From Desulfarculaceae bacterium (GTDB taxonomy: Bacteria; Desulfobacterota; Desulfarculia; Desulfarculales; Desulfarculaceae), in contig JAMOVV010000023.1 of assembly GCA_027067385.1 (NCBI GenBank), positions 1-59,683 on the forward strand: 59,683 nucleotides of DNA, read 5' to 3'. Below the pieces are notes generated by a model. The model saw nothing but the letters and a program-made list of their open reading frames with translations, did no database searches and had not been told where the DNA came from. Numbering within the stretch: position 1 is the first letter of the stretch; each line of letters starts with the position of its first letter. This document shows positions 8,035 through 58,764 of this stretch, piece after piece. Made by a program: the position numbers and the translations under genes.

Positions 8035-8128
8035 CATCATGGGCCTGTTTCCGGTATGTTTCGCCTTACCCTCGCACGGCCCAACAAAACGATCATGGAT
8101 CGGTTTTGATCCCTATGGGAGGTGAAGT

Positions 8129-9859: not shown

Positions 9860-9861
9860 CC

Positions 9862-11025
9862 ATGGGCCGGCGTCCGGGGCCGGGGCTCTATATCCACCTG
9901 CCCTTTTGCCCGTCGCTCTGCCCCTACTGCGACTTTGCCACCCAAAAGTACCGACCCGGCCAGGCCCGCGAGTTGATCGCCGGTCTGGCCGTTCATTTGC
10001 GGCGCCTGGCCGGCGCGCTCCGGGGCCGCCGGCTGGAGACCATCTACTTCGGCGGCGGCACCCCCAGCATGTGGCCGGCGGCCGCCCTGGCCGGCCTGCT
10101 GGAGCTGGCGGTTGACTTGTGGGGCCTGGCGCCCGGCGGCGAGGTGAGCCTGGAGGCCAACCCCGGCACCCTGAGCCGGGGCAAGCTAAAGGCCCTGCGC
10201 GCCGCCGGCTTCAACCGGCTCAGCCTGGGGGCCCAGAGCTTTGACCCCGGCCGGTTGGCCGCCCTGGGCCGGCGCCACAGCGCCGATGACACCCGCCGGG
10301 CGGTGGACCAGGCCCGCGCGGCCGGCTTTGACAACCTCAACCTGGATATCATCTACGGCCTGCCGGGACAGGACCCGGCCGCGGCGGCGCGCGATCTGGC
10401 TCGCGCCCTGGCCCTGGAGCCGGAGCACCTGTCGCTCTACGAGCTCACCCTGGGGCCGGAGACCCCCTTTGGCCGGCGCTATAGCCAGGGCCGAGAGCCC
10501 CTGCCTTCCGAGGACCAGGTACTGGCCATGGAGGACGCGGCCCTGGCCGCCCTGGCCGCCGCCGGCCTGGAGCGCTACGAGGTGAGCAACTTTGCGCGGC
10601 CGGGTTTCCAGTGCCGCCACAACCAGTCCACCTGGCGCGGCGGCGACTACCTGGCCGCCGGTCCCGGGGCCCACGGCCACCTGGACGGCCGGCGCTGGGC
10701 CTACCTGCCCCAGGTGGGCCCCTACCTGGCCTCCCTGACCCAGGGCCGGGAGCCGTACCAGTTCGTGGAGGACCTGACGCCCCAACAGCGCTGCCTGGAG
10801 CTGTTCATGCTGGGGCTGCGCACCACGGCGGGGGTGGAGCTGGCGGCGGTTGAAGAAATCCTGGGCCGCGACCCGCGCCAAGTCTACGCCCCGGGGATAC
10901 GACGCCTGCAGGAGTTGGGCTGGGCCCGGCTCACCGCCACCCACCTGGTGCCCACCACCTTGGGCCTACGCATGGCCGATGCTGCCAGCGCCCAGTGCCT
11001 GGGTTCCCATATAGGCCGGACGTAA
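9862..11025 (+). CDS. hemW: Radical SAM heme chaperone HemW (HemN-like)
   Basis: YIHLPFCPSLCPYCDF (CxxxCxxC), GGGTPS, and a HemN_C-like C-terminus. Confidence 0.85.
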   Translation: MGRRPGPGLYIHLPFCPSLCPYCDFATQKYRPGQARELIAGLAVHLRRLAGALRGRRLETIYFGGGTPSMWPAAALAGLLELAVDLWGLAPGGEVSLEANPGTLSRGKLKALRAAGFNRLSLGAQSFDPGRLAALGRRHSADDTRRAVDQARAAGFDNLNLDIIYGLPGQDPAAAARDLARALALEPEHLSLYELTLGPETPFGRRYSQGREPLPSEDQVLAMEDAALAALAAAGLERYEVSNFARPGFQCRHNQSTWRGGDYLAAGPGAHGHLDGRRWAYLPQVGPYLASLTQGREPYQFVEDLTPQQRCLELFMLGLRTTAGVELAAVEEILGRDPRQVYAPGIRRLQELGWARLTATHLVPTTLGLRMADAASAQCLGSHIGRT

Positions 11026-11174
11026 CTTTCCATAGCCACCGCCCGTTCTTAATGCCCACCGATCTGGCCATGACGACAGGCCAAGCCCAGTGCCTGGGTC
11101 CCCATATGGGCCGGACGTAATGTTCCATACCCATCGCCCTTTCTTAATACCCGCCGATCTGGCTACGATGACAG
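10990..11174. repeat. Tandem direct duplication (2 x ~90 nt, period 95) that includes the last 36 nt of hemW
   Basis: Copy 1 (10990-11079) and copy 2 (11085-11174) align by eye with about 12 mismatches. Copy 2 retains an in-frame AQCLGPHMGRT-stop ghost of the hemW C-terminus. Confidence 0.8.
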
Positions 11175-11211
11175 CCCCCCAGTAAAACCGACCCGACCTT
11201 ACAGTCGGCCC

Positions 11212-11363
11212 CGAGCGGAGCAGGTTGGTGGACGAGCCTTTAACGCCCCGGACTTGGACCCACTACGGGAGCCCAGGCACTGGGCTTCGAGCGGAGGATG
11301 GCGGGGGACGAGCCTTTAACCCCACGGACTTGGACCCACTACGGCAGCCGAGGCCCTCGGCCC
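11212..11363. repeat. Second tandem direct repeat (2 units, period 76)
   Basis: The cgagcggag...ggacgagcctttaac[gc]cc[cgac]ggacttggacccactacgg core occurs at 11230-11268 and 11306-11344. The spacer carries cccaggcactgggc, the reverse complement of the start of the first repeat family. Confidence 0.75.
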
Positions 11364-11710
11364 GAGAGCCAGTGCTTGATTTGGATTACCTTGCCGGGGT
11401 CTTTTTGCAGGCTCTGCAAAAGGGCCTGGGCGGCCTCCAAGCGCTGGAGGTGATCGCCGGCGCCGTGGTCCGGACGGTGGCGCTTAACCAGCCGTGGCCA
11501 GAACCGGACCAGGATGAGGCCCAGGGCCAAGCCCAGGAGCAGGCCCAAGGCCAGCCCAACCCACAGGAGTTCCGCCCCGGGGCCGGGTGGGCCGGGCGGC
11601 GGGTGGCCAAAGAGACCCGTCGCCGGCGCCGTGGCCGGTATCCTGCCGGCGCAGGCCGCCAGCCCAGCCAGCGTCGTGGCGGCGATCGCGGGTTTGAGGT
11701 CAAGGGGCAT
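11339..11710 (-). CDS. Small hypothetical membrane/lipoprotein
   Basis: ATG at 11710 is preceded by GGGAGA. N-terminus MPLDLKPAIAATTLAGLAAC is lipobox-like, followed by a hydrophobic helix LLWVGLALGLLLGLALGLILV. No family recognised. Its 3' end runs into the repeat region. Confidence 0.4.
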   Translation of the reverse strand: MPLDLKPAIAATTLAGLAACAGRIPATAPATGLFGHPPPGPPGPGAELLWVGLALGLLLGLALGLILVRFWPRLVKRHRPDHGAGDHLQRLEAAQALLQSLQKDPGKVIQIKHWLSGRGPRLP

Positions 11711-11896
11711 GGCTTCTCCCGGGCCGCGGTGGCGCGGCACGGGAGAGGTTTTTGCAAAAGACCCGCCAGGCAGGTGGCGGATGGGGTCGTTTCTGGTTAG
11801 CTGGTGATATCACGTTGTTGGGGACATGGCCCGGCCGCGGCCGCGGCCGGGGGGCGCAAATTAACCGCTAACGCCCTTGGTGGATGCGGCTAATTT

Positions 11897-13019: not shown

Positions 13020-15611
13020 CTACTTGGCCAGGCGCTTGGCCACCAACTCGGTGATGTCGGCCACCTTGATCTTGCCCAACCCCTCCTTGCGGGCGCGGGC
13101 GGCGGCCTGGTTCAGCGAGTTTTTACACGAGGGGCAGGCGCTCACCACCATGTCAGCCCCCTGGTTGATGGCCGTCACGATGCGCTCCAGGGCGATATCA
13201 GAGCCCAGTTGGTTGGCGTAGGCCTTCACCCCGCCGCCGCCGCCGCAGCACTTGGCCAGGTTGCGGTTCTGGGGGAACTCCAGCAGCTCGACCCCGGGCA
13301 GGGCCTTGATCACGTTGCGCGGCGGCTCGAATATCTGCAGGTGGCGGCCCAGGTCGCAGGGGTCGTGATAGATCACCTTGGTGGCCTTGGCCTTGTCCTT
13401 GAACTTGAGCTTGCCCTCGCCGATGAGGCGTTCCATGGTCTCCACGATATGCTCGGGCCGGTAGCCGTCGTGGTAGCCGTACTCGGGATAGAGGTGGTCG
13501 AAGGTCTTGTGGCAGCCGGCGCAGGTGGTGAGCAGGGTCTTGACCCCGGCCTTTTTAAAGGCCCTCTTGTTCTTGGCGGCCACCTTCTTGAAAGTGGCCA
13601 TGTCGCCCACCAGGTAGGCCAGGTAGCCGCAGCAGTTCTCCTTGGTGCCCTCGGTCTTGAAGGGCACGCCGGCGGCGTCGAGAATCTTCATCACGCTGGG
13701 GATGATCTTGACGTCCTGGTAGGAGGAGGAGCATCCCAGGTGCAGCAGGGTGTCGGCCTTGGGATTGTCGGCGTAGCCCACGGGATAGCTGTCGGTGCGG
13801 GTCTCGCGCGGCAGGGCGTAGGGATTACCCTTGTCGATCATGTCGGACATGAGCTGCTTGAAGGTTTTGGGCAGGCGTCCGGCCTCGGCCACCCGGACGC
13901 GGGCGGCCTGGATCACCTTGGCCACGTCCACCTGGGCCGGGCAGGTGTACTTGCAGTTGAGGCACATCATGCACTGGTACAGGCGGTCGCCCATCTCGGC
14001 GGTGGGCTTGGCCGCGCCGGTGAGCAGGCTGAAGGCCAGGGAGATGCGTCCGCGGGCGTTCATGGTCTCGATGGTGGTCTGGCCGTAGGTGGGGCAGCCC
14101 AGCTTGCAGAAGCCGCACTGGATGCAGGCCACGATCTCGTTATCCACCCCGGTGCCGAAGGAGACCACCTTGTCCGAGCCCTTGCGCAGGGGCTCGAAGC
14201 CGTTTTTGGCGTACACGTCGCGGATGGAACCCTTGAGCCCCTCCTTGCCGGGGTTGAGGATGTTCTTGGGGTCCAGGGCGTCCTTGATCGACTGCATCAC
14301 CGCGATGCCGGCCTGGCCCAACTCGGTCTTGAGGTAGGGGCTCTTGGCCATGCCCACCCCGTGCTCGGCGCTCATGGTGCCTTCCATGGCGGCGGTGACC
14401 TCCACCAGTTCCAGGGCGATCTTCTTCACCGCCTCCCACTCCTTGGCCTTCTTCACGTCCATGATGAAGGTGGCGTGCAGGTTGCCGTCGCCGATATGGC
14501 CGAAGGTGGCGATGGGGAAGCCGTACTTTTCGCCGATGGCCTGGATCTCCTTGATGGTCTGGGGAATCTTGGTCATGGGCACCCCGAAGTCCTCCATCAA
14601 GGGCACCAGGCGGTAGCCCGGCTTGAGCCGGCTCATGGCCGGCACCAGCTTGTGGCGGGCCTCCCACAGGGGGGCCTTCTCGGCCTCGTCGTCGGTCCAG
14701 TTGTGCGAAAGCACGCCGTGGGACTCGGCGATTTTATTCACCTGCTCGACGTTGTCCATCACCGCCGCCTTGTGGCCGTCGATCTCCATCATGATCATGC
14801 AGCCGATGTTCGCCGGCAGGTCCAGGCCGATGCTCTTGCGCAGCACCTCGATGGAGACGTTGTCCAGTATCTCGCAGGTGGCGATGGGGATGCCGCTGGT
14901 GAGCATCTCGGTAACCGCTTGGCCGGCGCTGTCGATGTCGGGGAAGTCCAGGCGGGCGCTGATGGCGTACGGCGGGGTGGGGATGATCTTCACCGTGGCC
15001 TCGGTCACCACGCCCAGGGTGCCCTCGGAGCAGCTAAACAGGTGGGTGAGATCGTAACCGCTGGAGGTCTTGGGCGCGGCCGAGCCGGTCTTGACCACGG
15101 TGCCGTCGGCCAGCACCACGGTGAGCCCCATGACGAAGTCCTTGGTGGTGCCGTACTTGATGGCCCGGATGCCGCTGGCGTTGGTGTTGATCATGCCGCC
15201 GATGGTGGCGATAGCCGCCGAGCCGGGGTCGGGCGGGAAGAAGTAGTTGTCCTTGGCCAGGGCGCCGTTGAGCGCGGCGCAGACCACGCCGGGCTCCACC
15301 CGGGCGTAGTGGTCGGCCAGGTTGACCTCCAACACCCGGTTCATGCGCACCAGGTTGAGGATGATGCCGCCCTTGGCGGCCAGGGCCGCGCCGGTAACCG
15401 AGGTGCCGCCGCCGCGGGGGGTGACCGGCACGCCCGCCCGGTGGCAGGTCTCCATGATTTGGGACACCTGCTCGGTGGTCTCGGCAAAGACCACCGCCTT
15501 GGGTATCGCCATGTGTACCGACATGTCGCGCGAATAGCCCAGGCAGTCGGTCCGGCTGGTCAGTACGTTTTCGGCCCCTACGATCTTCGCCAGTTTGGCC
15601 GCGATTTCCAT
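13020..15611 (-). CDS. Fusion protein: FAD-linked (GlcD-type) 2-hydroxyacid dehydrogenase + 2x[4Fe-4S] + two CCG (HdrD/GlpC-like) domains
   Basis: 863 aa. N-terminal FAD-binding PVTPRGGGTSVTG. Middle CIQCGFCKLGCP and CMMCLNCKYTCP. C-terminal CCGY..., PCDLGRH, CCGGGGG, ACPSCK. Confidence 0.9.
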   Translation of the reverse strand: MEIAAKLAKIVGAENVLTSRTDCLGYSRDMSVHMAIPKAVVFAETTEQVSQIMETCHRAGVPVTPRGGGTSVTGAALAAKGGIILNLVRMNRVLEVNLADHYARVEPGVVCAALNGALAKDNYFFPPDPGSAAIATIGGMINTNASGIRAIKYGTTKDFVMGLTVVLADGTVVKTGSAAPKTSSGYDLTHLFSCSEGTLGVVTEATVKIIPTPPYAISARLDFPDIDSAGQAVTEMLTSGIPIATCEILDNVSIEVLRKSIGLDLPANIGCMIMMEIDGHKAAVMDNVEQVNKIAESHGVLSHNWTDDEAEKAPLWEARHKLVPAMSRLKPGYRLVPLMEDFGVPMTKIPQTIKEIQAIGEKYGFPIATFGHIGDGNLHATFIMDVKKAKEWEAVKKIALELVEVTAAMEGTMSAEHGVGMAKSPYLKTELGQAGIAVMQSIKDALDPKNILNPGKEGLKGSIRDVYAKNGFEPLRKGSDKVVSFGTGVDNEIVACIQCGFCKLGCPTYGQTTIETMNARGRISLAFSLLTGAAKPTAEMGDRLYQCMMCLNCKYTCPAQVDVAKVIQAARVRVAEAGRLPKTFKQLMSDMIDKGNPYALPRETRTDSYPVGYADNPKADTLLHLGCSSSYQDVKIIPSVMKILDAAGVPFKTEGTKENCCGYLAYLVGDMATFKKVAAKNKRAFKKAGVKTLLTTCAGCHKTFDHLYPEYGYHDGYRPEHIVETMERLIGEGKLKFKDKAKATKVIYHDPCDLGRHLQIFEPPRNVIKALPGVELLEFPQNRNLAKCCGGGGGVKAYANQLGSDIALERIVTAINQGADMVVSACPSCKNSLNQAAARARKEGLGKIKVADITELVAKRLAK

Positions 15612-16309: not shown

Positions 16310-17182
16310 TTACTTAAAGGCTTTCACCAGGTCCTTGGGCTTGATCCGGTTCAGCTTGAAGCCCAGTTCCTTGGGCTTGAAGCCCAGGGCCAGCCCCAGC
16401 ACCTGGGTGACGTAGACCACCGGCACCTTGAGCTCGGTCGCCAGCTTCTTGGCGATGGTCTTTTGCTGGCCCTCGTACATCACGTTGCAAAAGGGACACA
16501 GCAGGGCCAGGGCGGTCACCTCCCGCGCCGCCAGGTCCACCAGCTTGGTGCCGGCCATGCGACCGGCCAGCCGCTCGTCGGCCCCCAGCACGCCGCCGCC
16601 GCAGCACTCCTTCATAGAGTCGTAGGCCACCGCCTCGGCCCCGGTGAGCTCGATGAGCCGGGCCAGGCTGGTGGGGTCCTCGGGGTCGTCCAGGCCGCCG
16701 AGCACTTGGCTGGGCTTGAGGTAGTGGCAACCGTAGTGGGGCGCAAAGCTGAATCCCTCCAGGCTGCGGGTGAGCTTTTTCTTAATGGCCGCCTCGCCCA
16801 CGTCTTCGAGCAAAAAGCGCACCAGGTGCTTCACCCGCACCCCCGGCCGGTAGGCCAGCCCCAGGGGGGCCAGCTCGCGGTTGACCCGCCGGCGGGCCGC
16901 GGCGTCGTGGTCCAGGTGGTGGGCCGCCTCGGCCAGGGTGCCGGTGCAGGCCGAGCACAGCGGGGTGAGGGTGAGCCCGCCCTCGCCGGCCTGGGCCAGG
17001 GCGCGGGCCGCGATGACCAGGGCGGCCGCCTGGTCGGTGGCCTTGAGCGGGAAGCCGCAGCAGCCGGCCTCGGTCAGGTCGCGGAGCTTCACCCCCAGGG
17101 CCGCGGCCACCTTGCGGGCCGATAGTTCGTAGTTCAGGTTGCGCACCGGCACGGTGCATCCCAGGTACAGCAGCGCCTCCAT
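16310..17182 (-). CDS. hdrB: Heterodisulfide reductase subunit B-like (two CCG domains)
   Basis: True start is MEALLYLGCTVP at 17182 (the ORF track extends further upstream). Motifs: CCGFP, CSACTG, CCGGG, CPFC. One-nt overlap with the hdrC stop. Confidence 0.85.
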   Translation of the reverse strand: MEALLYLGCTVPVRNLNYELSARKVAAALGVKLRDLTEAGCCGFPLKATDQAAALVIAARALAQAGEGGLTLTPLCSACTGTLAEAAHHLDHDAAARRRVNRELAPLGLAYRPGVRVKHLVRFLLEDVGEAAIKKKLTRSLEGFSFAPHYGCHYLKPSQVLGGLDDPEDPTSLARLIELTGAEAVAYDSMKECCGGGVLGADERLAGRMAGTKLVDLAAREVTALALLCPFCNVMYEGQQKTIAKKLATELKVPVVYVTQVLGLALGFKPKELGFKLNRIKPKDLVKAFK

Positions 17183-17664
17183 CAGCTCTTCCCCCCGGCT
17201 GGCTCGACTCCCAACACTTTCTGGAAGTGGGCCGGGGCCTCCGCCACCTCGGGCAGCCCCAGGTCGGTCCGCCGCTGGTTCTCGAACTCGCCCACCTCCA
17301 GCAGCCGGCCGTGGGCGGCCAGTTGGTCGATGACGGCCTCGGTGGCCGGCGGGCCGTAGCCGGCGCGGGCCGCGATATTCTTGATGGCTGTGAGCACCTC
17401 GGTGAAAGACACCTGCTGGGGGCAGACCTCCTGGCAGGAGTAGCAGGTGGAGCACAGCCAGATCAGGGGGCTGGCCAGCACTTCTTCCCGCCGGCCCAGC
17501 AGGACCAGCCGGATGAGGCGCCGGGGGTCGTAGCCTTCCACGTGGCCAGCCACCGGGCAGCGGGCGGTGCAGGCGGCGCAGGCGAAACAGGCCTTGATGC
17601 CCTGGCCGCCGGGCTCGGCGGCCACCTGGTGCTTAAAGCCGGGATCACAGTCGTTGAGCAGCAT
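17182..17664 (-). CDS. hdrC: Heterodisulfide reductase subunit C-like (2x[4Fe-4S])
   Basis: 160 aa with CFACAACTARCP and CSTCYSCQEVCP. Confidence 0.85.
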   Translation of the reverse strand: MLLNDCDPGFKHQVAAEPGGQGIKACFACAACTARCPVAGHVEGYDPRRLIRLVLLGRREEVLASPLIWLCSTCYSCQEVCPQQVSFTEVLTAIKNIAARAGYGPPATEAVIDQLAAHGRLLEVGEFENQRRTDLGLPEVAEAPAHFQKVLGVEPAGGKS

Positions 17665-17666
17665 GT

Positions 17667-19523
17667 CTATTTCTCCCCGGCCGTTTGGGCCAGCTCGGCC
17701 ACCGCCTGGGCCAGGGCCCGGGGTTGATTGGATGCCAGGTGCATAAAGCGCACCTGCTCGGGCCGGCCGCCCACCTGGGCCAGCAGATCAGCCGCCTCGC
17801 CGGAGCGCAGCTTGGCCCGCAGGTTGCCGTTTAACGAGCGGCAGTTGCCCTGGTGGCAGCCGGCCACCAGCACTCCGCCGGCTCCCAAAGACAGGGCCCG
17901 CAGGATTAGCTGGACGCCCACCCGGCCGGCGCAGTTGACCGGCACCATCAAGAGCCCCTTGGGCCACTGGTGCCCGGCCAGGCTCAGGGCGCGGGCCGCG
18001 TCCATGCCGGAGTTGCGGCAGGCAAACAGCACCAGCTTGTCGCCGGCGGCCGCCTTGAGCCCGGCGGCCAGGGACGCGATCATCTCGCGGTTGGACCAGC
18101 CCGGCGGGGCGATGGCCTCGGCCGGGCACTCGGCGGTGCACACCCCGCAGGCCAGGCAGGCGGCCGGGGCGGGGGCGATGTGGTCCTCGGCGTAGCACAC
18201 CACGCCGTGGGGACAGACCCGCACGCAGGTGAGGCAGGAGGCGCATAACACGTCGCGCACCGCCGGCACCGCCACCGCCTCGCCCGAAAGCAGGCCGTGC
18301 AGGTCGGCCGCCGCGGCCGCGGCCTGGGCCCGGCGCGGGTCGCCCGGGGCGGCGCCGCGCGCCCCGCCGATGAGATAGAGCCCGCTGCGGGCGGTGCGGC
18401 CGGCCTGCAGGCGGGGATGGTCGGGCAGGTCCTGGTCCCAGGCCGTGGTGACCAGGGGGTTGTCCAGCCAGGCCGGGGCCCGGCCGGTAACCTCCTCGCT
18501 AAGCACCACCAAGTCGGGCCGCAGGTCCACCGGCTCGCCGAGCACCGGGTCGTCGAAAGACAGCTTGCGGCCGTCGCGGCTCACCCGCAGCCCGCCGGGC
18601 TCCACCCGCATGGCCAGCACCCCCTGGCGCCGGGCGTCGCGGTAGAGCCGCTCGCCGCCCTCGGAGGCCACCTTGGCCTCGCCCAGGAACAGGGTGACCT
18701 GCACCCGGGGCCGCTTTTGCAGGGCCAGGGCCGCGGTCACCGCCCGGGCAAAGCCGTGGGCCGTGGCCCCGGGGCCCAGGGGCGCGATCACCGCCGCTTG
18801 CAACCACTGTTCGCCGCCTTGGTACTGCTTGGGCTTAAGCCGGCTCACCGGCAGGGTGATGTCTTCGGCCGTGGCCGGCATGTCGCCGGGCACCGCGTAG
18901 GCGCTGGGCGGGGCCAGCACCACCGCCCCGAAGCGCCGCCGGCTGGTGCGGCGCGGACCCTGCAGCCGGGCCTGGAAGTCGCCGCCGGCCCCGAGCAACT
19001 CCACCAGCTCGGTGCCGGTGACCACCTCCACCTGGGCCGGCAGCCCGGCCAGGGCCCGTTTCACCTCGGCCGGTTTCTCGTCGGCGCAGGCGGCCCGGGC
19101 CCGGGTGGTCTCCAGGGCCAGCAGCACCGGGTGGCCCAGGGCGGCGGCCTGGTGGGCCGCGGCCACGGCGGCCAGGCCGCGGCCGGCCACCAACACCTCT
19201 TGGTTGGGCTGGCGGGTGTAGCGCTGGGCCATGGTGCCCAGGGCGGCCGAGCCGGCCGCGCGGGCCACCGCGGCCGCGGCCCGGGCCTGGCGCAGGGCCA
19301 GGGGACCGCCGCCCACCTCGGCGGCCAGGTCCAACCACTTCACCGGGTAGCCCTTGAGCCGGTTGACCAGGCTGCGGGGGGCCCGCGCCTCGGTGGTGGT
19401 CACCACCGCCGCCTCCACCAGCCCGCCGTCAGACAGCGCCACCCCGGCCTTCTTGGCCGCCTTGGCCGGGTCCAGCCCCTCCAGCCCCGCTTCCTCGATC
19501 CAGATGAGGCTCACCTCAGGCAT
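17667..19523 (-). CDS. HdrA/QmoB-like oxidoreductase with 2x[4Fe-4S] and a C-terminal MvhD domain
   Basis: 618 aa. Dinucleotide fold VLVAGRGLAAVAAA. CASCLTCVRVCP and CLACGVCTAECP. MvhD-like FACRNSG...VNCAGRV...AGCHQGNC. Confidence 0.8.
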   Translation of the reverse strand: MPEVSLIWIEEAGLEGLDPAKAAKKAGVALSDGGLVEAAVVTTTEARAPRSLVNRLKGYPVKWLDLAAEVGGGPLALRQARAAAAVARAAGSAALGTMAQRYTRQPNQEVLVAGRGLAAVAAAHQAAALGHPVLLALETTRARAACADEKPAEVKRALAGLPAQVEVVTGTELVELLGAGGDFQARLQGPRRTSRRRFGAVVLAPPSAYAVPGDMPATAEDITLPVSRLKPKQYQGGEQWLQAAVIAPLGPGATAHGFARAVTAALALQKRPRVQVTLFLGEAKVASEGGERLYRDARRQGVLAMRVEPGGLRVSRDGRKLSFDDPVLGEPVDLRPDLVVLSEEVTGRAPAWLDNPLVTTAWDQDLPDHPRLQAGRTARSGLYLIGGARGAAPGDPRRAQAAAAAADLHGLLSGEAVAVPAVRDVLCASCLTCVRVCPHGVVCYAEDHIAPAPAACLACGVCTAECPAEAIAPPGWSNREMIASLAAGLKAAAGDKLVLFACRNSGMDAARALSLAGHQWPKGLLMVPVNCAGRVGVQLILRALSLGAGGVLVAGCHQGNCRSLNGNLRAKLRSGEAADLLAQVGGRPEQVRFMHLASNQPRALAQAVAELAQTAGEK

Positions 19524-20616
19524 GGGCCGCCTCCCGAACCAGGGGCTGGAGATGCCCGGCGGCCGCAGCCGCGGCCACCGCCCCGTGCTCTATGGACTCC
19601 ACGATGGACATGGGCCCCCGGGCCGAGCCGGCGATGAAGACACCGGCCGCCCCACTGGCCACCGGCTCGGCGTCGGAGCCCAAAAATCCGTCGCTGGTGC
19701 GGGTGCAGGCAAAGAGCTGGCTCAGGGCCGCCGCGCCCACCGGCGGACGCATCCCTTGGCTCAGCACCACCAGGTCGAACTCGGCGGTCTGGCTGCGGCC
19801 GCCGGCGGCGTAGACCACCTGGGGTCCGCCCGGGCCGGCGGTCACCTCGCCGGGCATGGCCCGCACAAAGTTCATTTGCTCTCGCATCTCCGCCAGCTCC
19901 CCGGCCCAGGCGCGGCCGTAGGTCTGCACGTCCATGTGGAAGAAGGTTATCTCGGTCCCGGGCCGGCGGGCCTGGATCACCCGGGCCATGCGCAGGGCGA
20001 ACCCGCAGCACACCCGGCTGCAATATAGATGACCCAGGGACTCGTCGCGGCTGCCCACGCACTGGATAAAGGCCACCCGCCGCGGGTCGCGCCCCCCGGC
20101 CAACTCGGCCAGGGAGTGCTCCAGGGCGCCCTCCAGCTCCAGGGCGCTCACCACGCCGGGCACCCGGCGATAGCCGAAACGACTCTTGGCCGAGGGGTCA
20201 AACGGCGTGGCCCCCACCGCCAGGATCACCGCCCCGGCCTGGACCTGGCTGCGCCGCGGCAGCGGCCCACCGGCCAGCTCCACCACCGGGGCCGGTCCGT
20301 TGTTGCGCTGGGGCTCCAGGGTGAGCCGCCAGCCATCGCCATCGGCCTCGGCGGCCACCGGCTTGGCCGAGGTGTAAATCGCTATCTCCGGCCGGGCGGC
20401 AACCCGGCGTACCAGGTCGGCCAAACGGCAGGCCCCGCAGCGGACGCAAGAGTCGGTCGCCTTGCAGCAGAAATCGGCCACCCGGCCCCCTAAACGGGGG
20501 CCGCGCTCCACCACCAGCGAGGATAGCCCCCGCCGGGACAGATCGATGGCCGCCGCCAGCCCAGCCACGCCGCCCCCGATGATGACGGCTGGCGTTTTAA
20601 TTGTCTTAACAGCCAC
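19516..20616 (-). CDS. HdrA/QmoA-like FAD-dependent subunit
   Basis: 366 aa with VIIGGGVAGLAAA and the HdrA signature CVGSRDESLGHLYCSRVCC. An 8-nt overlap (ATGCCTGA) with the next gene. Confidence 0.85.
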   Translation of the reverse strand: MAVKTIKTPAVIIGGGVAGLAAAIDLSRRGLSSLVVERGPRLGGRVADFCCKATDSCVRCGACRLADLVRRVAARPEIAIYTSAKPVAAEADGDGWRLTLEPQRNNGPAPVVELAGGPLPRRSQVQAGAVILAVGATPFDPSAKSRFGYRRVPGVVSALELEGALEHSLAELAGGRDPRRVAFIQCVGSRDESLGHLYCSRVCCGFALRMARVIQARRPGTEITFFHMDVQTYGRAWAGELAEMREQMNFVRAMPGEVTAGPGGPQVVYAAGGRSQTAEFDLVVLSQGMRPPVGAAALSQLFACTRTSDGFLGSDAEPVASGAAGVFIAGSARGPMSIVESIEHGAVAAAAAAGHLQPLVREAAHA

Positions 20617-20726: not shown

Positions 20727-20756
20727 TTGACAAGCCGCGATTTTCCCGCCTATAGT
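20727..20756 (+). promoter_or_regulatory. Candidate sigma70 promoter for the dehydratase operon
   Basis: TTGACA (20727-20732), N18, TATAGT (20751-20756), about 120 nt upstream of the start codon. Confidence 0.4.
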
Positions 20757-20769
20757 GCGTAATAGCTGG

Positions 20770-20799
20770 ATTGTAGCTAACATGTAATCATTTTGTCTA
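20770..20799 (-). promoter_or_regulatory. Candidate sigma70 promoter for the Qmo/Hdr-like operon
   Basis: The minus strand reads TAGACA-N18-TACAAT. It interdigitates with the plus-strand candidate. Confidence 0.3.
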
Positions 20800-20881
20800 C
20801 CCGTTTTTCGCTTTTCGCGCCGCTTTTTTTGTCTGCCGGCAGGTTTTTGCGGCCGGCGCGAGAGGCCCTCGAAGGATGGTT

Positions 20882-22105
20882 ATGCCTCCCATCAAAGCCA
20901 CCAAGCAGATGAAAAAGCTCATGGAAGACCACTTCCTGGGACTGGCCAAGGCCAAGGAGGAGGGCAATCCCAAGGTGGCCTGGTGCACCTCGGTGGGGCC
21001 GGCCGAGCTGCTGCACGCCATGGGCTTTGATGTCTACTTCCCGGAGAACCACGGGGCCATGCTGGGGGCCACCCGCATGGCCACCGATCTCATCCCCGAG
21101 GCGGTGGCCGCCGGCTACTCGCCGGAGATATGCTCCTACCTCACCTCGGACGTGGGATCCTACCTGGCCGGCCAGACCCCGCTGACCCGGGCCTATGGCC
21201 TGGAGTCGGTACCCCGGGCCGACGTGCTGGTGTTCAACAACAACCAGTGCCGGGAGGTGCAGGACTGGTTCATGTTCTACGCCCGGGAGTGGGACGTGCC
21301 CCTGGTGGGCATCAACAACCCGCGGGTGATCCACGAGGTGAAGGAAAGCCACGTGGCCGACGTTAAGAGCCAGATGCACGACATGATCCCGGTGTTGGAG
21401 CAGGTCAGCGGCAACAAGTTCGACATCGACCGTTTCCGCGAGGTGGTGGGGCTGTCCAAGCAGTGCACCATCCGCTGGCGCAAGGTGCTCGAGGGGGCGG
21501 CCCACCACCCCAGCCCCATGACCTTCTTCGACCACTGCATCCACATGGCCCCGGCGGTGGTGCTGCGCGGCAAGCAGGAGGCGGTGGACTACTACGACCT
21601 GCTGCTGGCCGAGATCGACCAGATGGTGCAAGACCAGGTGGCGGCGGTGCCCGGGGAGCAGGTGCGCCTGTACTGGGACGGCATGCCGGTGTGGGGACGG
21701 CTGCGTATGCTCTCGGAGCTGCTGAACGAGCTGCAGGCGCCCATCGTCTCCTCCACCTACTGCAACTCCTGGATTTTCGACGCCCTGGATGAGCGCGACC
21801 CCTTCGACTCCATGGCCCGCGCCGCCCTGGAGCTGTTCAACGTGCGCGACGATGACTTCAAGGAGGGCTATGTCAAGGAGTGGGTGGAGCGTTGCGGGGT
21901 CGCGGGCATCATCTTCCACGACGCCAAGACCTGCCCCTACAACACCAACAGCCGCTTTGCCATGCCCCAACGTCTGTCTCAGGAACTGGGTCTGCCCACC
22001 CTGGTGATCAACGGCGATCTCAACGACCTGCGCTTTTTCAGCGACGAACAGGCCAAGACCAACATCGAGGCCTTCGTGGAGCAGTTGTTGGAGCAGGCGG
22101 CCTAG
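20882..22105 (+). CDS. 2-hydroxyacyl-CoA dehydratase family protein (D-component; HgdB/BcrC-like), single subunit
   Basis: About 407 aa. N-terminus PKVAWCTSVGPAELLHAMGFDVYFPENHGA is typical of the family. ATG at 20882 has better spacing to GAAGGA than the ATG at 20876. Confidence 0.85.
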   Translation: MPPIKATKQMKKLMEDHFLGLAKAKEEGNPKVAWCTSVGPAELLHAMGFDVYFPENHGAMLGATRMATDLIPEAVAAGYSPEICSYLTSDVGSYLAGQTPLTRAYGLESVPRADVLVFNNNQCREVQDWFMFYAREWDVPLVGINNPRVIHEVKESHVADVKSQMHDMIPVLEQVSGNKFDIDRFREVVGLSKQCTIRWRKVLEGAAHHPSPMTFFDHCIHMAPAVVLRGKQEAVDYYDLLLAEIDQMVQDQVAAVPGEQVRLYWDGMPVWGRLRMLSELLNELQAPIVSSTYCNSWIFDALDERDPFDSMARAALELFNVRDDDFKEGYVKEWVERCGVAGIIFHDAKTCPYNTNSRFAMPQRLSQELGLPTLVINGDLNDLRFFSDEQAKTNIEAFVEQLLEQAA

Positions 22106-22129
22106 GGGCCGGCGGTAGCGGGAGCTGAC

Positions 22130-22906
22130 TTGGCGAGCCATTTTGCCGGTATAGACGTGGGAGCCAGCGCCACCAAGGTGGCGGTGGTCGATGAACAAGG
22201 CGATCTCCAGGGCCACGCGGTGCGCCGTTCGGGGGTGGACTTCGCCGCCAGCGCCCAGGAGGGCTTCCAGCGGGCCCTGGCCATGGCCGGGCTGCAGGCC
22301 CAGGACATTGCCGGGGTGATATCCACCGGCTACGGCCGCAAGAACGTGCCCTTTGCCGGCGCCAGTCGCACCGAGATCGCCTGCCACGGAGCCGGAGCCT
22401 ACTTCCACTATCCCCAGGCGATAACCGTGGTGGACATCGGGGGCCAGGACAACAAGATCATCAAGTTGGACGCCCAGGGCCGGCGCAAATCGTTCAAGAT
22501 GAACCGTAAGTGCGCCGCCGGCACCGGGGCCTTCTTGGAAGAGATGGCCCTGCGCCTGGACCTGGAACTGGGCGCCATGAACCAACTGGCCGCGGCGGCC
22601 CGGGAGGAGGTCACCCTGGGGGCCTTTTGTACCGTGTTCACCGGCACCGAGCTGCTGAGCAAGATTCGCGAGGGGGTGCGGGTGGAGCCGCTGGTCAAGG
22701 GGCTTTTCCGGTCGGTGGTCAAGCGGGTGCGGGAGATGGACACCCTCACCAACCTGGTGGTGATGACCGGCGGGGTGGTGGCCCACAACCCGTTTCTCAT
22801 GGAGATGATGGCCCAGGAGGTGGGGCGCGAGGTGGTGACCACCCCCCGTCCCCAGCTCAACGGGGCCTGGGGTGCGGCCCTGCTGGCCCGTGACCAACTG
22901 ACGTAG
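22130..22906 (+). CDS. BadF/BadG/BcrA/BcrD-type ATPase (dehydratase activator, HgdC-like)
   Basis: 258 aa. GIDVGASATKVAVV, the cluster-bridging Cys contexts NRKCAAGTG and AFCTVF, and MTGGV. TTG start preceded by GGGAG. Confidence 0.85.
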   Translation: MASHFAGIDVGASATKVAVVDEQGDLQGHAVRRSGVDFAASAQEGFQRALAMAGLQAQDIAGVISTGYGRKNVPFAGASRTEIACHGAGAYFHYPQAITVVDIGGQDNKIIKLDAQGRRKSFKMNRKCAAGTGAFLEEMALRLDLELGAMNQLAAAAREEVTLGAFCTVFTGTELLSKIREGVRVEPLVKGLFRSVVKRVREMDTLTNLVVMTGGVVAHNPFLMEMMAQEVGREVVTTPRPQLNGAWGAALLARDQLT

Positions 22907-23004
22907 AGTTTTTATACGCTAAACAACACACCGCGCGGCCACGGGACGGCGGCTCGCCGCCGGCGGCCCCGGGTCGGCCCACGCAAGAGGGAGGTAGATA
23001 CAAT

Positions 23005-24588
23005 ATGAATCGCTGGTTGACCGTTGGCGACATACTCCGGGTAAACGCCACCATGTTCGCCGACAAGGAGGGAGCGGCAGACCTGTACAGGTCGCTTACC
23101 TTTAAGGAGTGGAACGAACGCTGCTGCCGCCTGGCCAACGCCCTGGCCGACCGCGGGCTGCAAAAGGGTGACCGCATAGCCATGATCGCCTTCAACTGCC
23201 TGGAGTGGTTGGAGTTCTACGGCGCCTGCGCCAAGGGCGGTTTCGTGGCGGTGCCGATCATGTTCCGGCTCACCCCGGCGGAATACGGCTATATCCTCAA
23301 CAACGCCGAGTGCAAGGCCTTCATCGTGGAAAAGCCCTTTGCCGATGACGTGGCCGGGGCCAAGGCCGACCTGGAGACCATCGACGCCGACAAGTACTTC
23401 TTCTTTGGCGAGGGGGACGCGCCCGAGGGCTTTGTGCACCTGGAGGACCTGTTCAAGGAAGGTTCGGCGGTGGAGCCCCCGGTGAAGGTGATCGACGAGG
23501 ACACCTGGATCATCATGTACACCTCCGGCACCACCGGCCGTCCCAAGGGCGTGGTGCGCACCCACGAGTCGCTGGCCGGCAAGTACTGGACCAACATCGC
23601 GGCCATGGGCTACGACCGCGACGACCGGGGCCTGTTGGTGATGCCCATGTGCCACATCAACAGCGTCTTCTACTCCTTTGTCTTCACCTGCCTGGGGGCC
23701 GCGGCCATCGTCTACAATTCGGTGTCCTTCGACCCAGAGCACATGATCAAGACCCTCAGCGAGTTCGGGGTGACCTTCACATCCCTGGTGCCTACCCACT
23801 ACATCATGATGCTGGCCCTGCCCGAGGAGGTTAAGAGCAAGTACAACGTGGACTGCGTCAAGAAGCTGCTCATCTCCTCGGCCCCGGCCCGGCGCGATCT
23901 CAAGCTGGCCATCATGGACTACTTCAAGAACAGCCAGCTCTACGAGGCCTACGGCTCCACCGAGGCCGGCCTGGTCACCCTGCTGCTGCCCGACGAGCAG
24001 TTCGACAAGCTCGGCTCCATCGGCCGCGAGATACCGGGTACCGACCTGCTCAAGATTCTCGACGAGGACGGCAACGAGGTGCCCGACGGCGAGGTGGGCG
24101 AGCTCTACTCCCGCGGGCCGGCCCTGTTCAGCGAGTACTGGAAGCTGCCCGAGGAGACCAAGGCCGCCTTTGTGGGCGACTTCTTCAGCGCCGGCGACAT
24201 GGCCTACCGCGACCAGGAAGGTTACTACTACCTGGTGGACCGCAAAAAGAACATGATCATCACCGGCGGCGAGAACGTCTACCCCTCGGAGGTGGAAGAC
24301 TGCATCGGCGGCCACAACGCGGTCAAGGACGTGGCGGTCATCGGGGTGCCCGACGAGAAATGGGGCGAAAAGGTCACTGCGGTGATCATCCTGCACGATG
24401 GTTACCAGCCCACCGACGAGCTGGCCGCCGAGCTGCGCGACTTCACCAAGGGCAAGATCGCCGGCTTCAAACGGCCCAAGGCCGTACACTTTGTGACCGA
24501 AGAAGAAATGCCCCGCACCGGCACCGGCAAGATCCTGCACCGCGTGCTGCGCGAGCGCTACGGCCACTGGTCCGAGGCCGAGAAATAG
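23005..24588 (+). CDS. AMP-dependent acyl-CoA synthetase/ligase
   Basis: 527 aa with YTSGTTGRPKGV, YGSTE, SAGDMAY, GKILHR. Confidence 0.85.
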   Translation: MNRWLTVGDILRVNATMFADKEGAADLYRSLTFKEWNERCCRLANALADRGLQKGDRIAMIAFNCLEWLEFYGACAKGGFVAVPIMFRLTPAEYGYILNNAECKAFIVEKPFADDVAGAKADLETIDADKYFFFGEGDAPEGFVHLEDLFKEGSAVEPPVKVIDEDTWIIMYTSGTTGRPKGVVRTHESLAGKYWTNIAAMGYDRDDRGLLVMPMCHINSVFYSFVFTCLGAAAIVYNSVSFDPEHMIKTLSEFGVTFTSLVPTHYIMMLALPEEVKSKYNVDCVKKLLISSAPARRDLKLAIMDYFKNSQLYEAYGSTEAGLVTLLLPDEQFDKLGSIGREIPGTDLLKILDEDGNEVPDGEVGELYSRGPALFSEYWKLPEETKAAFVGDFFSAGDMAYRDQEGYYYLVDRKKNMIITGGENVYPSEVEDCIGGHNAVKDVAVIGVPDEKWGEKVTAVIILHDGYQPTDELAAELRDFTKGKIAGFKRPKAVHFVTEEEMPRTGTGKILHRVLRERYGHWSEAEK

Positions 24589-24676
24589 CCGCAGCCCCGG
24601 GAGCTGGGCTTTATATTTTTAAACTTGGTACCGGCTGATCAAGCTGACTTGCCAACGCAACCCAAGGAGACAGGAC

Positions 24677-25870
24677 ATGTTCACCAAGTCGTTTATCCCC
24701 CACAAGGGCTACTGGTCCTCGCCCTTTTCCCGATGGCAGATGTCCTTCCAGAACGAGCACGCCATCGTACTGGCTGCGGCCACGACCAAAAAATTCTTCG
24801 AGCTGCGCCAGATAGACCCCGCCGTCTTTGACTGGGGCGTACTGGGCATGACCATCGGCCAGAAATCCTGGTTCTACGCCTGCCCCTGGTACTGCGCCCT
24901 GGCCGGGGCCGAGAAGATCGCCGGCCCCACCATCAGCCAGGCCTGCGCCACCAGCGCCACCTCCATCTACACCGGCGCCGCCGCGGTGGAGCTGGGCAGC
25001 GCCGAGTGCGTGCTGGTGGGCACCACCGACCGCTGCTCCAACGGCCCCCACACCGTGTGGCCCAATCCCAAGGGTCCCGGCGGCGAGGTGATCCACGAGA
25101 ACTGGCTCATGGACAACTTCAACATCGACCCCTGGGGCGGCGAGGCCATGGTCAAGACGGCCGAGAACGTGGCCGCCGACCACGGCGGGGTCACCAAGGA
25201 AGAGTCCGACGCCCTGGCCCTGCGGCGTTACGAGCAGTACCTCATGTCCCTGGAAAACGACCGCGCCTTCCAAAAAGAATACATGATCCCGGTGGACATC
25301 AAGGTCTCTAAGAAAAAGACCATCACCATCGAAGGGGATGAAGGCATCATGCCGGTGACCGCCGAGGGCCTGGCCCCGCTCAAGCCGGTGGTGCCCGGCG
25401 GCTCCATCACCTTCGGCGCCCAGACCCACCCGGCCGACGGCAACGCCGGCTTCGTGGTCACCACCGAGGAAAAGGCCAAGGAGCTCAGCGCCGACAAGAG
25501 CATCACCATCCAGATACTCTCCTACGGCTACGCCCGGGCCCCCAAGGCCCGCATGGCCGCCGCGGTCACCCCCTCGGCCGAGATGGCCCTGGCCAAGGCC
25601 GGCATCGGCGTGAGCGATCTGGCCGCGGTGAAGACCCACAACCCCTTCACCGCCAATGACATCGTCATGGGCCGCCTGATGAAGATACCCGAGGAGATAT
25701 TCAACAACTACGGCTCCTCGCTGGTCTTCGGACACCCCCAGGGTCCCACCGGCGCCCGCTGCACGGTGGAGCTGATCGAGGAACTCGTCAAGCTCGGCGG
25801 CGGCTACGGCCTCTTTGCCGGCTGCGCCGCCGGCGACACCGCCGCGGCCCTGGTGATCAAGGTCTCCTAG
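24677..25870 (+). CDS. Thiolase-family protein (divergent acetyl-CoA acyltransferase-like)
   Basis: 397 aa. Nucleophile context ISQACATSAT, then GHPQGPTGAR and C-terminal GCAAGDTAAAL. The N-terminus is atypical. Confidence 0.8.
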   Translation: MFTKSFIPHKGYWSSPFSRWQMSFQNEHAIVLAAATTKKFFELRQIDPAVFDWGVLGMTIGQKSWFYACPWYCALAGAEKIAGPTISQACATSATSIYTGAAAVELGSAECVLVGTTDRCSNGPHTVWPNPKGPGGEVIHENWLMDNFNIDPWGGEAMVKTAENVAADHGGVTKEESDALALRRYEQYLMSLENDRAFQKEYMIPVDIKVSKKKTITIEGDEGIMPVTAEGLAPLKPVVPGGSITFGAQTHPADGNAGFVVTTEEKAKELSADKSITIQILSYGYARAPKARMAAAVTPSAEMALAKAGIGVSDLAAVKTHNPFTANDIVMGRLMKIPEEIFNNYGSSLVFGHPQGPTGARCTVELIEELVKLGGGYGLFAGCAAGDTAAALVIKVS

Positions 25871-44770: not shown

Positions 44771-44956
44771 CTTGAATCCTTCCTTGGGGGTAATATTATT
44801 GCGAATTGTTACTAACTATTATCACTAAAGTACCCGGCAAAGTCAAGCCGGCAGCATGGGGCCGCGGTGCCGGCGGCCGCGGCGCCGGCATCGGTCTGGA
44901 TTGACACCGGCCACAGCGGCTGCCAGTATGGGCGGGAATTCTGCGGGATCGTAGGC

Positions 44957-58400: not shown

Positions 58401-58764
58401 TCTTGGTCACCCCGTAGGCCTGCAACTCGGCGATCTCCTCGGGTACGATCACCCCGCCGCCGCCGCCGAAAACCTTGATATGCCCGGCCCCGTTTTCCTT
58501 GAGTAGGTCCACGGTGTACTTGAAGAACTCCATGTGGCCGCCCTGGTAGCAGGACAGGCATATGGCCTGCACGTCCTCCTGCACCGCGGCGTCGACCACC
58601 TCGGCCACCGAACGGTTGTGCCCCAGGTGGATCACCTCCACCCCGGTGGATTGCAAGATGCGGCGGATGATGTTGATGGCCGCGTCGTGGCCGTCGAAAA
58701 GGCTGGCGGCGGTTACCGCGCGCACCGTGTTGCGGGGGGTATACGGTTTGCAATCAGCGGTCAT
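55483..58764 (-). CDS. icmF: Fused isobutyryl-CoA mutase (B12-binding domain + MeaB-like GTPase + acyl-CoA mutase barrel)
   Basis: 1093 aa. N-terminal [13 protein letters not shown] (DxHxxG-type B12 loop), P-loop [13 protein letters not shown], mutase core [12 protein letters not shown] and TINGPAP. Confidence 0.9.

Follow-up and report, generated by a model that had tools for sequence, protein, structure and literature searches.

Four consecutive genes at positions 20882-25870, on the forward strand of contig JAMOVV010000023.1 of a Desulfarculaceae bacterium (assembly GCA_027067385.1), encode a D-component of the 2-hydroxyacyl-CoA dehydratase (HAD) type, its activase, an AMP-forming acyl-CoA ligase and a thiolase. 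The whole stretch of DNA analysed, 59,683 nucleotides long, is called the window below. We consider it rather probable, though far from settled, that this cassette specifies an ATP-primed, oxygen-sensitive radical (R)-2-hydroxyacyl-CoA dehydratase with one alpha-type subunit and a homodimeric activator, whose product would feed beta-oxidation. Textbooks treat HAD radical dehydratases as enzymes of clostridial amino-acid fermentation, and to our knowledge every description of them has been of alpha/beta heterodimers that work with CoA-transferases. A single-gene enzyme of the alpha type, similar to HadB and set inside a ligase/beta-oxidation module, appears uncharacterised in the literature searched. 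The genes of the cassette are:

20882-22105, forward strand: D-component (called D below), 407 aa, member of the alpha-type HAD / class I benzoyl-CoA reductase (BCR) family (PF06050 HGD-D, E 3.7e-65)
22130-22906, forward strand: predicted ASKHA-type ATP-dependent activator ("archerase"), 258 aa, TTG start (PF01869, E 7.5e-46)
23005-24588, forward strand: AMP-forming acyl-CoA ligase of the ANL superfamily, 527 aa (AMP-binding, E 3.5e-80; AMP-binding_C, E 9e-20)
24677-25870, forward strand: thiolase of a distinct subfamily, 397 aa (Thiolase_N, E 8.8e-23; Thiolase_C, E 6.1e-20)

The single D-component and its partners

The four open reading frames (ORFs) were verified at these coordinates, as were the Pfam families, the KCAAGTG and AFCTVF motifs of the activator and the thiolase N-terminus (MFTKSFIPHKGYWSSPFSRWQ) given in the original prediction, a model's reading of the same DNA from its letters. 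Their GC content at third codon positions (GC3) is of the coding type (0.88-0.92, in a window of 65-70% GC), and they are separated by 24 nt (D-activase), 98 nt (activase-ligase) and 88 nt (ligase-thiolase). An alternative in-frame ATG for D lies at 20876, two codons upstream of 20882. Since an AAGGA ribosome-binding site matches the 20882 start and the database protein P0001 is also 407 aa long, the start was placed at 20882.

A family profile of D built from 12 sequences was compared with the sequences of the PDB. It matched the alpha subunit HadB (E 5.8e-62), MbdO (4.9e-39) and BzdO (1.5e-30), then the double-cubane protein DCCP (6eno, ~2e-5, in the C-terminal domain only) and the beta subunit HadC (0.0036). 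The AlphaFold2 model of D (pLDDT 84, pTM 0.86) superposed on HadB (3o3m_A) with a TM-score of 0.90-0.92 and an rmsd of 2.3 A; the TM-score was 0.83 to BzdO and MbdO, ~0.75 to DCCP and 0.68-0.73 to beta-type subunits. Cys84, Cys123 and Cys351 of D (numbered in the 407-aa protein) align with the HadB cysteines and with Cys95, Cys128 and Cys380 of BzdO, the three residues that ligate the catalytic [4Fe-4S]-OH2 cluster there (PMC11971306). They are near-universal among 99 full-length representatives. The sequence thus predicts a [4Fe-4S] cluster held by three cysteines, with one open iron. Because of the profile scores, the model superposition and the aligned cluster ligands, D is classed from sequence and model as a catalytic, alpha-type member of the HAD/BCR radical enzymes, with the dehydratases as nearest relatives.

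D scores below every curated equivalog cut-off and is therefore not an orthologue of any characterised dehydratase. Its filing as a HadBC, HgdAB, FldBC or LcdAB orthologue was rejected on these thresholds and on the finding of one PF06050 subunit where such heterodimers have two different ones. A class I BCR was rejected on the low scores of TIGR02260 (139 bits, cut-off 486.55) and TIGR03191 (91 bits, cut-off 448.6), the single ATPase gene and the lack of a partner D gene. An assignment to DCCP was likewise rejected: its seven-cysteine motif is not present in D, the double-cubane model NF040772 gave 49.6 bits against a cut-off of 350, and the PDB match is remote. The original prediction had named orthology to a characterised pathway and missing cluster-ligating cysteines as signs that it was wrong; all equivalog scores stayed under their cut-offs, and the three ligand cysteines are kept.

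No second D-type gene was found in the 59.7-kb window by tblastn and family-profile hmmsearch in six frames, the next best match having an E value of 3.9. Nor was a second PF06050 gene found within 10 kb of D among the ORFs of 84 loci, where the next match (E 0.09) was a shadow ORF. These loci, mostly the best 80 of at least 600 matching stretches, were fetched with up to 10 kb on each side of D. The profile used for this search does detect HadC in the PDB; lacking a beta-type neighbour therefore characterises the family rather than this one window. As judged from these sequences, two different PF06050 subunits are not encoded within the window or the 84 loci, and D is presumably a homodimer. 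The original prediction had contrasted its single ~407-aa gene with a rule of two different D subunits. The single gene stands, and so does the rule for all characterised HAD and class I BCR enzymes, which are heterodimeric in the D module (PMC7317905, PMC11971306). The rule does not extend to DCCP and YjiM, which belong to the superfamily but are each encoded by one gene and have an ATPase of their own, and the D protein of DCCP is homodimeric; among HAD-type proteins a single subunit stands out, in the superfamily at large it does not (PMC7317905).

The activator scored 194.7 bits with TIGR00241, over the cut-off of 125.4, and matched HadI (4eht, E 1.1e-49), HgdC (1hux, E 3.2e-42) and also MbdQ in the PDB. 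KCAAGTG and AFCTVF are both present, and both bridging cysteines align with those of HadI (4eht). With two bridging cysteines per monomer it would be a dedicated ASKHA activator, predicted to be homodimeric, so that the claim that D has an activator of its own was borne out. The claim of an ATP-dependent AMP-forming ligase where clostridia use a CoA-transferase was likewise upheld by the AMP-binding and AMP-binding_C domains. The best NCBIfam match of the ligase, PRK06187 (medium/long-chain), reached 440.8 bits against a cut-off of 476, and because of this shortfall no substrate-specific assignment was made; its best PDB matches are FadD5 and FadD13.

For the thiolase, TIGR01930 gave 175.9 bits against a cut-off of 240.55, and the best solved thiolases matched at only ~1e-33. 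Cys90, Asn322, His353 and Cys383 are nevertheless conserved in 20 aligned sequences (Asn322 in 19 of the 20), matching 3ss6. By sequence, the catalytic tetrad is intact and the subfamily divergent. The N-terminus (MFTKSFIPHKGYWSSPFSRWQ), which the original prediction had found atypical, is, to judge from the alignment, a hallmark of this subfamily: the signature M[FL]xK[AS][FY][IV]P[HY]xGY[WY]S[ST]PF[SA][RK]WQ is common to the D-linked thiolases of Desulfarculaceae, Geobacter-type bacteria and Asgard archaea. Reading the substrate from the ligase or the thiolase was tried and rejected, as their matches are generic medium/long-chain ligases and acetoacetyl-CoA thiolases under curated cut-offs; this agrees with the earlier view that the sequence does not reveal the substrate. 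The window has a further AMP-forming ligase gene at 8129-9859 on the forward strand, a paralogue with 28% identity to the cassette ligase, and a HemN-like radical SAM gene comes right after it (9862-11025, forward strand).

Distribution, gene neighbourhood and the divergent Hdr-like cluster

A word-indexed protein search with D returned 7,661 proteins at E <= 1e-20, the best named relatives being those of Desulfocarbo indianensis (78% identity), Desulfoferula mesophila (69%) and Desulfomonile tiedjei (66%). When 1.84 billion 50%-identity representatives were searched exhaustively with HMMER, 1,588 relatives reached E <= 0.001, and 255 of them reached E <= 1e-30. When one genome per species was scanned, at least 600 stretches matched, of which at least 591 were confirmed, at 57-78% identity across phyla and into Asgard archaea; the label "orphan" must therefore be dropped. 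The best 80 of these at least 600 loci, with D 57-74% identical, come from Desulfarculaceae, Desulfomonilaceae, Geobacter/Desulfuromonadales, Desulfobacterales and Syntrophales, and also from Planctomycetota/Phycisphaerae, Aminicenantes, Acidobacteria, Dehalococcoidales (Chloroflexota) and two Promethearchaeota.

The neighbourhoods of D in the 84 loci were analysed by tblastn with the window proteins, all-against-all clustering of ORFs and family scans of recurrent neighbours. Of 83 loci, 67 have the activator adjoining D. The AMP-forming ligase has orthologues (45-85% identity) next to D in ~22 loci, and in ~22 others a 700-aa ADP-forming acyl-CoA synthetase (CoA_binding, Succ_CoA_lig, ATP-grasp_5) is found directly downstream on D's strand, an unrelated enzyme that has replaced the AMP-forming ligase at the same position. 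The D-linked thiolase subfamily is present in 18-19 loci, a PanE/ApbA-type 2-oxoacid reductase upstream of D in 16, a short-chain enoyl-CoA hydratase in 13 and a 3-hydroxybutyryl-CoA dehydrogenase in 5. A GlcD-like FAD-oxidase/CCG fusion occurs in ~21 loci, often directly upstream and co-oriented; orthologues of this kind (47-73% identity) stand directly upstream on D's strand in L029, L030, L032, L034, L040, L043, L044, L047, L048, L051 and L077. Rarer neighbours include a CoA-transferase, indolepyruvate:ferredoxin oxidoreductase (IOR), a PaaK-like ligase, an ACT protein, an IclR regulator, a TRAP transporter and a non-decarboxylating glutaryl-CoA dehydrogenase (585 bits, over the cut-off of 470). 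When the count was narrowed to the 38 loci in which D is flanked by 5 kb or more on each side, the activator was found in 31 and a CoA-activating enzyme in 24 (AMP-forming orthologue 13, ADP-forming synthetase 13), a candidate 2-oxo- or 2-hydroxyacid dehydrogenase in 18, a beta-oxidation enzyme in 16 and the thiolase subfamily in 14. By their families, the genes linked to D point to acyl-CoA and amino-acid/2-oxoacid catabolism.

A protein fusion leads in the same direction. P0122, one of the 50%-identity representatives (728 aa, 49% identical to D), consists of a PanE/ApbA reductase fused to HGD-D, which would tie 2-oxoacid reduction to D as strongly as genomics allows. P0130 and P0156 have the same architecture, with the cluster cysteines replaced by S/G/S or T; their D domain is probably non-catalytic.

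In the window, six genes are transcribed divergently from the cassette:

19516-20616, reverse strand: HdrA-like FAD/NAD-binding protein (N-terminal part of HdrA), 366 aa (HdrA2, E 2.7e-60)
17667-19523, reverse strand: HdrA C-terminal/ferredoxin/MvhD(FlpD)-like protein, 618 aa (PF02662, E 4.9e-27; HdrA2, E 4e-45)
17182-17664, reverse strand: HdrC-like 2x[4Fe-4S] protein, 160 aa (TIGR03290, E 5.4e-30)
16310-17182, reverse strand: HdrB-like CCG-domain protein, ~290 aa; its ATG start (17182-17180) overlaps the HdrC stop codon
15782-16201, reverse strand: GcvH-type lipoyl carrier, 139 aa, with an ESGK lipoyl-lysine motif (PF01597, E 3e-39)
13020-15611, reverse strand: fusion of a GlcD-like FAD-linked 2-hydroxyacid dehydrogenase, 2x[4Fe-4S] and an HdrD-type CCG part, 863 aa (by Pfam domains)

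Orthologues of the HdrB-like protein have 291 aa, and the GcvH-type protein scored 145.3 bits with PRK01202, over the cut-off of 117. The 863-aa fusion matched GlcD (E 2.5e-130), the D-2-hydroxyglutarate dehydrogenase YdiJ (9e-67) and LdhH (1.9e-38), all under cut-offs. The HdrA-like gene is kept divergent from D in Desulfarculaceae, and the arrangement of ten genes, cassette plus six-gene cluster, is shared by Desulfocarbo, Desulfoferula, Dethiosulfatarculus and metagenome-assembled genomes of Desulfarculus. In L034 and L043, all genes of the six-gene cluster lie on one strand and precede D, activator and ligase. In Desulfarculaceae the cassette is half of a ten-gene unit with the Hdr-like/GcvH/FAD-oxidase cluster. 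The original prediction had taken the four genes for self-contained. This does not hold, because they are always paired with the divergent cluster in this family, and because the hydratase and dehydrogenase steps are absent from the window and seen only at related loci. Conservation of the four-gene cassette, proposed there as a check, was found within the Desulfarculaceae ten-gene unit but not at Desulfomonilaceae-type loci, which keep D and activator only.

A lipoyl-GcvH as disulfide substrate of Hdr-like modules was proposed earlier by others (PMC9723716). The lipoyl protein beside an Hdr-like module, in a lineage of sulphate reducers, suggests that a protein-bound lipoyl disulfide is the substrate of this module as well. 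We infer that the Hdr/GcvH module may couple the interconversion of 2-hydroxyacids and 2-oxoacids to low-potential carriers, which the activator would also need.

Candidate regulatory sites were located by pattern scans:

20727-20756, forward strand: sigma-70-like promoter candidate for the cassette (TTGACA, 18-nt spacer, TATAGT; 11/12 consensus matches)
20770-20799, reverse strand: divergent sigma-70-like promoter candidate for the Hdr-like cluster (TAGACA, 18-nt spacer, TACAAT; 10/12)
24593-24610, forward strand: weak terminator-like hairpin with T-run in the ligase/thiolase gap

The cassette candidate lies ~125 nt upstream of the D start, inside the 260-nt divergent intergenic region. The promoter scan found 2 sites against 0.8 expected in shuffles and records consensus matches only. 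The terminator scan, with 7 sites against 4.4 expected, was not above background, and the site at 24593-24610 is not significant by itself.

Several other genes and loci were noted. leuC, leuD and asd lie directly downstream of the cassette in the window; a link to leucine biosynthesis was rejected, as the adjacency is lost in Desulfocarbo, Desulfoferula and other loci. In L001 and the Desulfomonilaceae-type loci L013-L025, D and activator stand beside a spermidine-synthase-like gene, DUF4178 and pyrroline-5-carboxylate reductase, with neither CoA-ligase nor thiolase; partner enzymes may be encoded elsewhere there, or the role may differ. In the Promethearchaeota loci L078 and L080 (~7090-11212 and flanks), ligase, thiolase and D are 49-59% identical to the bacterial proteins, and PanE, activator, MaoC and crotonase hydratases, aldehyde:ferredoxin oxidoreductase and M29 aminopeptidase genes lie nearby. 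This suggests that the whole module was transferred between domains. At 55483-58764 (reverse strand) of the window, 30 kb from the cassette, a 1,093-aa fusion of B12-binding, MeaB GTPase and methylmalonyl-CoA-mutase-family parts resembles IcmF (isobutyryl-CoA/butyryl-CoA mutase type), which would matter should the cassette produce branched acyl-CoAs. The window also encodes, at 44867-46567 (forward strand), a RACo-type reductive activator of corrinoid proteins, likewise an ATP-dependent electron transferase of the ASKHA type; a 326-aa protein without Pfam match follows it (46564-47544, forward strand). Coding-type GC3 and no Pfam match at E <= 1e-5 were also found at 6511-8034 (forward strand), 11339-11740 (reverse strand) and 48448-49344 (forward strand).

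Proposed pathway and competing explanations

We propose the following sequence of steps for the dehydratase. The start would be a free 2-hydroxy acid, and the AMP-forming ligase would convert it to the CoA thioester. Before that, the neighbouring GlcD/CCG flavoenzyme or, in other lineages, the PanE-like reductase may form the acid from its 2-oxo counterpart or epimerise it through that compound. The activator, with hydrolysis of ATP, would inject one low-potential electron into the three-cysteine [4Fe-4S] cluster of D with its open iron. The thioester would become a ketyl radical and lose its 2-hydroxyl group; deprotonation and return of the electron would then give the (E)-2-enoyl-CoA. Enoyl-CoA hydratase and 3-hydroxyacyl-CoA dehydrogenase, presumably encoded elsewhere in this genome and adjacent to D in other lineages, would follow, and the dedicated thiolase would split the 3-oxoacyl-CoA into acetyl-CoA and a shortened acyl-CoA. 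By analogy, this would be the respiratory (complete-oxidiser) counterpart of the clostridial reductive branch for 2-hydroxyacids, which reduces the enoyl-CoA instead. The earlier logic of acid activation, ketyl-radical chemistry and thiolysis thus gains backing from comparative genomics, through the neighbour genes and the fusion. The sequences themselves show the gene content, families, ligand and catalytic residues, the conserved neighbourhoods and fusions and the lack of a nearby beta-type partner; which reaction is catalysed and in which direction, how the subunits assemble and how the Hdr/GcvH cluster is connected are our inference.

Candidate substrates, none preferred, are the CoA esters of 2-hydroxybutyrate, 2-hydroxyglutarate, 2-hydroxyisocaproate, phenyllactate and longer 2-hydroxy acids. 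2-Hydroxyglutarate is included because glutaryl-CoA dehydrogenase and genes of the lower benzoyl-CoA pathway occur in L065, longer 2-hydroxy acids because the ligase resembles medium/long-chain enzymes, and phenyllactate or arylpyruvate products because IOR, PaaK and ACT genes occur in Geobacter-type loci (compare PMC13416013).

Several results weigh against an (R)-2-hydroxyacyl-CoA dehydratase. The HadB model NF052455 gave 212.1 bits against a cut-off of 750, and all curated equivalog scores for D are far under their cut-offs. Full-text literature searches turned up no study that characterises a single-gene HadB-like enzyme, this thiolase subfamily or the ten-gene unit, the sole mention being a passing one of a "singular" FldB-like gene (PMC13416013); dehydratase activity in the D family is a prediction. 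The window contains no hydratase or 3-hydroxyacyl-CoA dehydrogenase near the cassette, and the Desulfomonilaceae-type loci link only D and activator. The neighbourhood counts, taken from the best 80 of at least 600 loci, are phylogenetically non-independent. The sequencing runs that match the cassette (best: a hydrothermal vent metagenome, from which the window derives) are DNA-type only, with no RNA run among them. Finally, Cys35, Cys195 and Cys294, invariant in the D family beyond the three canonical ligands, are not found in HadB, and Cys294 aligns with a double-cubane ligand of DCCP. Because of these extra cysteines D may carry a different cluster and perform different chemistry.

The extra cysteines were placed by alignment and secondary-structure topology. 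Among the 99 full-length representatives, the pair Cys35 and Cys294 is nearly restricted to the closest relatives of D, to ~36% identity, and Cys195 to the closest representatives, being sporadic elsewhere; typical alpha-type proteins carry V/I/L and T/S/P at the positions of Cys35 and Cys294. Cys294 aligns exactly with the cysteine of the DCCP "EETC" motif, by spacing the fifth of the seven-cysteine motif (PMC7317905). The order 35/84/123/195/294/351 in D does not match the DCCP motif CX19CX18-19CX29CX166-170CX32-34CX32C. In the D model, Cys35 closes beta-1 of the N-domain, a position that may be topologically equivalent to that of the BzdN ligand Cys36 (PMC11971306). According to the BzdNO authors, catalytic subunits arose through loss of the distal cubane, and the vacated space now holds the substrate (PMC11971306). 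The D family may retain part of this distal-cubane site, either as Fe-S ligands that make up for the absent beta subunit or as thiols in the active site. A joint reading, to which we give a small but real chance, sees the D family as self-sufficient homodimeric dehydratases, evolutionary intermediates between double-cubane proteins and heterodimeric HAD/BCR enzymes. They would combine the catalytic three-cysteine cubane with vestigial or functional distal ligands, Cys35 and Cys294 (and Cys195 in the narrow family), and a modified or enlarged Fe-S site would take over the electron-relay role of the beta subunit. Priming electrons would come from the linked Hdr-like/lipoyl-GcvH bifurcating module, and the enzymes would serve an unrecognised respiratory route from amino-acid-derived 2-oxo and 2-hydroxy acids to beta-oxidation substrates, for example from phenyllactyl-CoA via cinnamoyl-CoA to benzoyl-CoA and acetyl-CoA.

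The direction of the pathway was weighed from both sides. HAD reactions are reversible in principle, and the ADP-forming synthetases of ~22 loci are reversible and often run from CoA ester to acid. The cassette could thus work biosynthetically: thiolase condensation and reverse beta-oxidation would yield an enoyl-CoA, which D would hydrate to a 2-hydroxyacyl-CoA; hydroxy acid set free from this ester would then be oxidised to 2-oxo acids for amino-acid synthesis, such as 2-oxobutyrate, 2-oxoisocaproate or 2-oxoglutarate. leuC, leuD and asd next to the cassette would suit this direction, and the 2-oxoacid reductase fusion fits either one equally. In ANL enzymology, though, an AMP-forming ligase renders the step from acid to CoA ester effectively irreversible. 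Catabolism is favoured because the cassette ligase would drive this step; moreover, the leuCD/asd adjacency is not kept in Desulfocarbo, Desulfoferula and other loci, and linked genes elsewhere are catabolic (M29 aminopeptidase, IOR, CoA-transferase, glutaryl-CoA dehydrogenase). We regard a biosynthetic role as unlikely. D as one half of a conventional alpha/beta heterodimer, with its beta-type partner gene at a distant locus, would agree with every characterised HAD and class I BCR D module (PMC7317905, PMC11971306), and only 59.7 kb of this genome is in view. Yet a profile capable of finding HadC detected a beta-type gene within 10 kb in none of the 84 loci from many phyla, D is fused to a reductase and never to a second D, D and activator form a tight gene pair in most lineages, and a single-gene homodimeric relative exists in DCCP (PMC7317905). 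A distant partner seems quite unlikely to us.

Alternatively, D could be a reductase with stoichiometric use of ATP, acting on enoyl-, dienoyl- or aryl-CoA as BCRs do or resembling DCCP with an extended Fe-S cluster. In its favour, D is plainly related to MbdO and BzdO (4.9e-39 and 1.5e-30), five to six cysteines and not three are invariant in the family, Cys294 aligns with a double-cubane ligand of DCCP, Cys35 may be placed like the BzdN ligand Cys36 (PMC11971306), and the linked Hdr-like module would supply low-potential electrons. Against this, D resembles HadB far more than it does the reductases or DCCP, by sequence as well as by fold, and neither the seven-cysteine motif nor the double-cubane equivalog score (49.6 bits against 350) is reached. 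BCRs have two different ATPase subunits and a double-cubane partner, where one ATPase gene and no partner are found here, and the linked or fused 2-oxoacid reductases supply exactly the substrate class of a dehydratase. A reductase is in our view very improbable, and we retain the radical dehydratase as the preferred explanation.

Significance and comparison with known systems

The single-gene alpha-type D is ~60% identical from Desulfobacterota to Asgard archaea and is wired to ATP-dependent ligases, 2-oxoacid reductases and enzymes of beta-oxidation. Should it prove to be an active dehydratase in homodimeric form, ketyl-radical dehydration would reach sulphate and iron reducers, syntrophs and archaea of sediments and vents, and would provide an anaerobic entry of 2-hydroxy and 2-oxo acids into beta-oxidation. 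It would also give mechanistic studies, and biocatalysis aimed at enoyl-CoA or 2-hydroxyacyl-CoA, a simpler system of two proteins. Through the extra conserved cysteines, the evolution of cluster architecture in the superfamily becomes directly testable.

A lone gene of similar description is known from BzS1, a sulphate-reducing benzene degrader, in which a "singular" FldB-like gene was mentioned in passing, was not detected in the proteome and was not characterised; its authors discussed it with a hypothetical conversion of phenyllactyl-CoA via cinnamoyl-CoA to benzoyl-CoA and acetyl-CoA (PMC13416013). Like D, it is a lone FldB/HadB-like gene in a Desulfobacterota genome, a likeness by description only. 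DCCP/DCCP-R and E. coli YjiM/YjiL (6eno, 7yyl) share with the cassette the pairing of one D-type gene with one ASKHA ATPase. Their sequence kinship to D is remote (~1e-5, C-terminal domain, TM 0.75) and the seven-cysteine motif is not found in D. The channels of DCCP are too narrow for CoA esters (PMC7317905), whereas the D family sits in an acyl-CoA gene context. BzdO and MbdO (8s02, 9g87) belong to the same catalytic-subunit subfamily as D, share the conserved Cys95/128/380 and bind CoA esters. They are less similar to D than HadB is, and they work with the double-cubane partners BzdN and MbdN and two ATPase genes, whereas D has no such partner and a single ATPase gene.

The closest characterised system is HadBC/HadI of Clostridioides difficile (3o3m, 4eht). 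D shares the HadB fold at ~30% identity and the same three-cysteine site, and the cassette activator resembles HadI (1e-49) with both bridging cysteines kept. A D-2-hydroxyacid dehydrogenase step is linked to D, like ldhA in the had operon. Unlike HadB, the D family has no HadC-type beta subunit nearby and carries three extra invariant cysteines, and its loci encode an ATP-dependent ligase (AMP- or ADP-forming) where had has the CoA-transferase HadA. The enoyl-CoA of the D family apparently passes to hydratase, dehydrogenase and thiolase, whereas that of the Had system is reduced by acyl-CoA dehydrogenase/Etf. The hosts differ in lifestyle: those of the Had system are Stickland fermenters, and those of the D family are respiring or syntrophic anaerobes.

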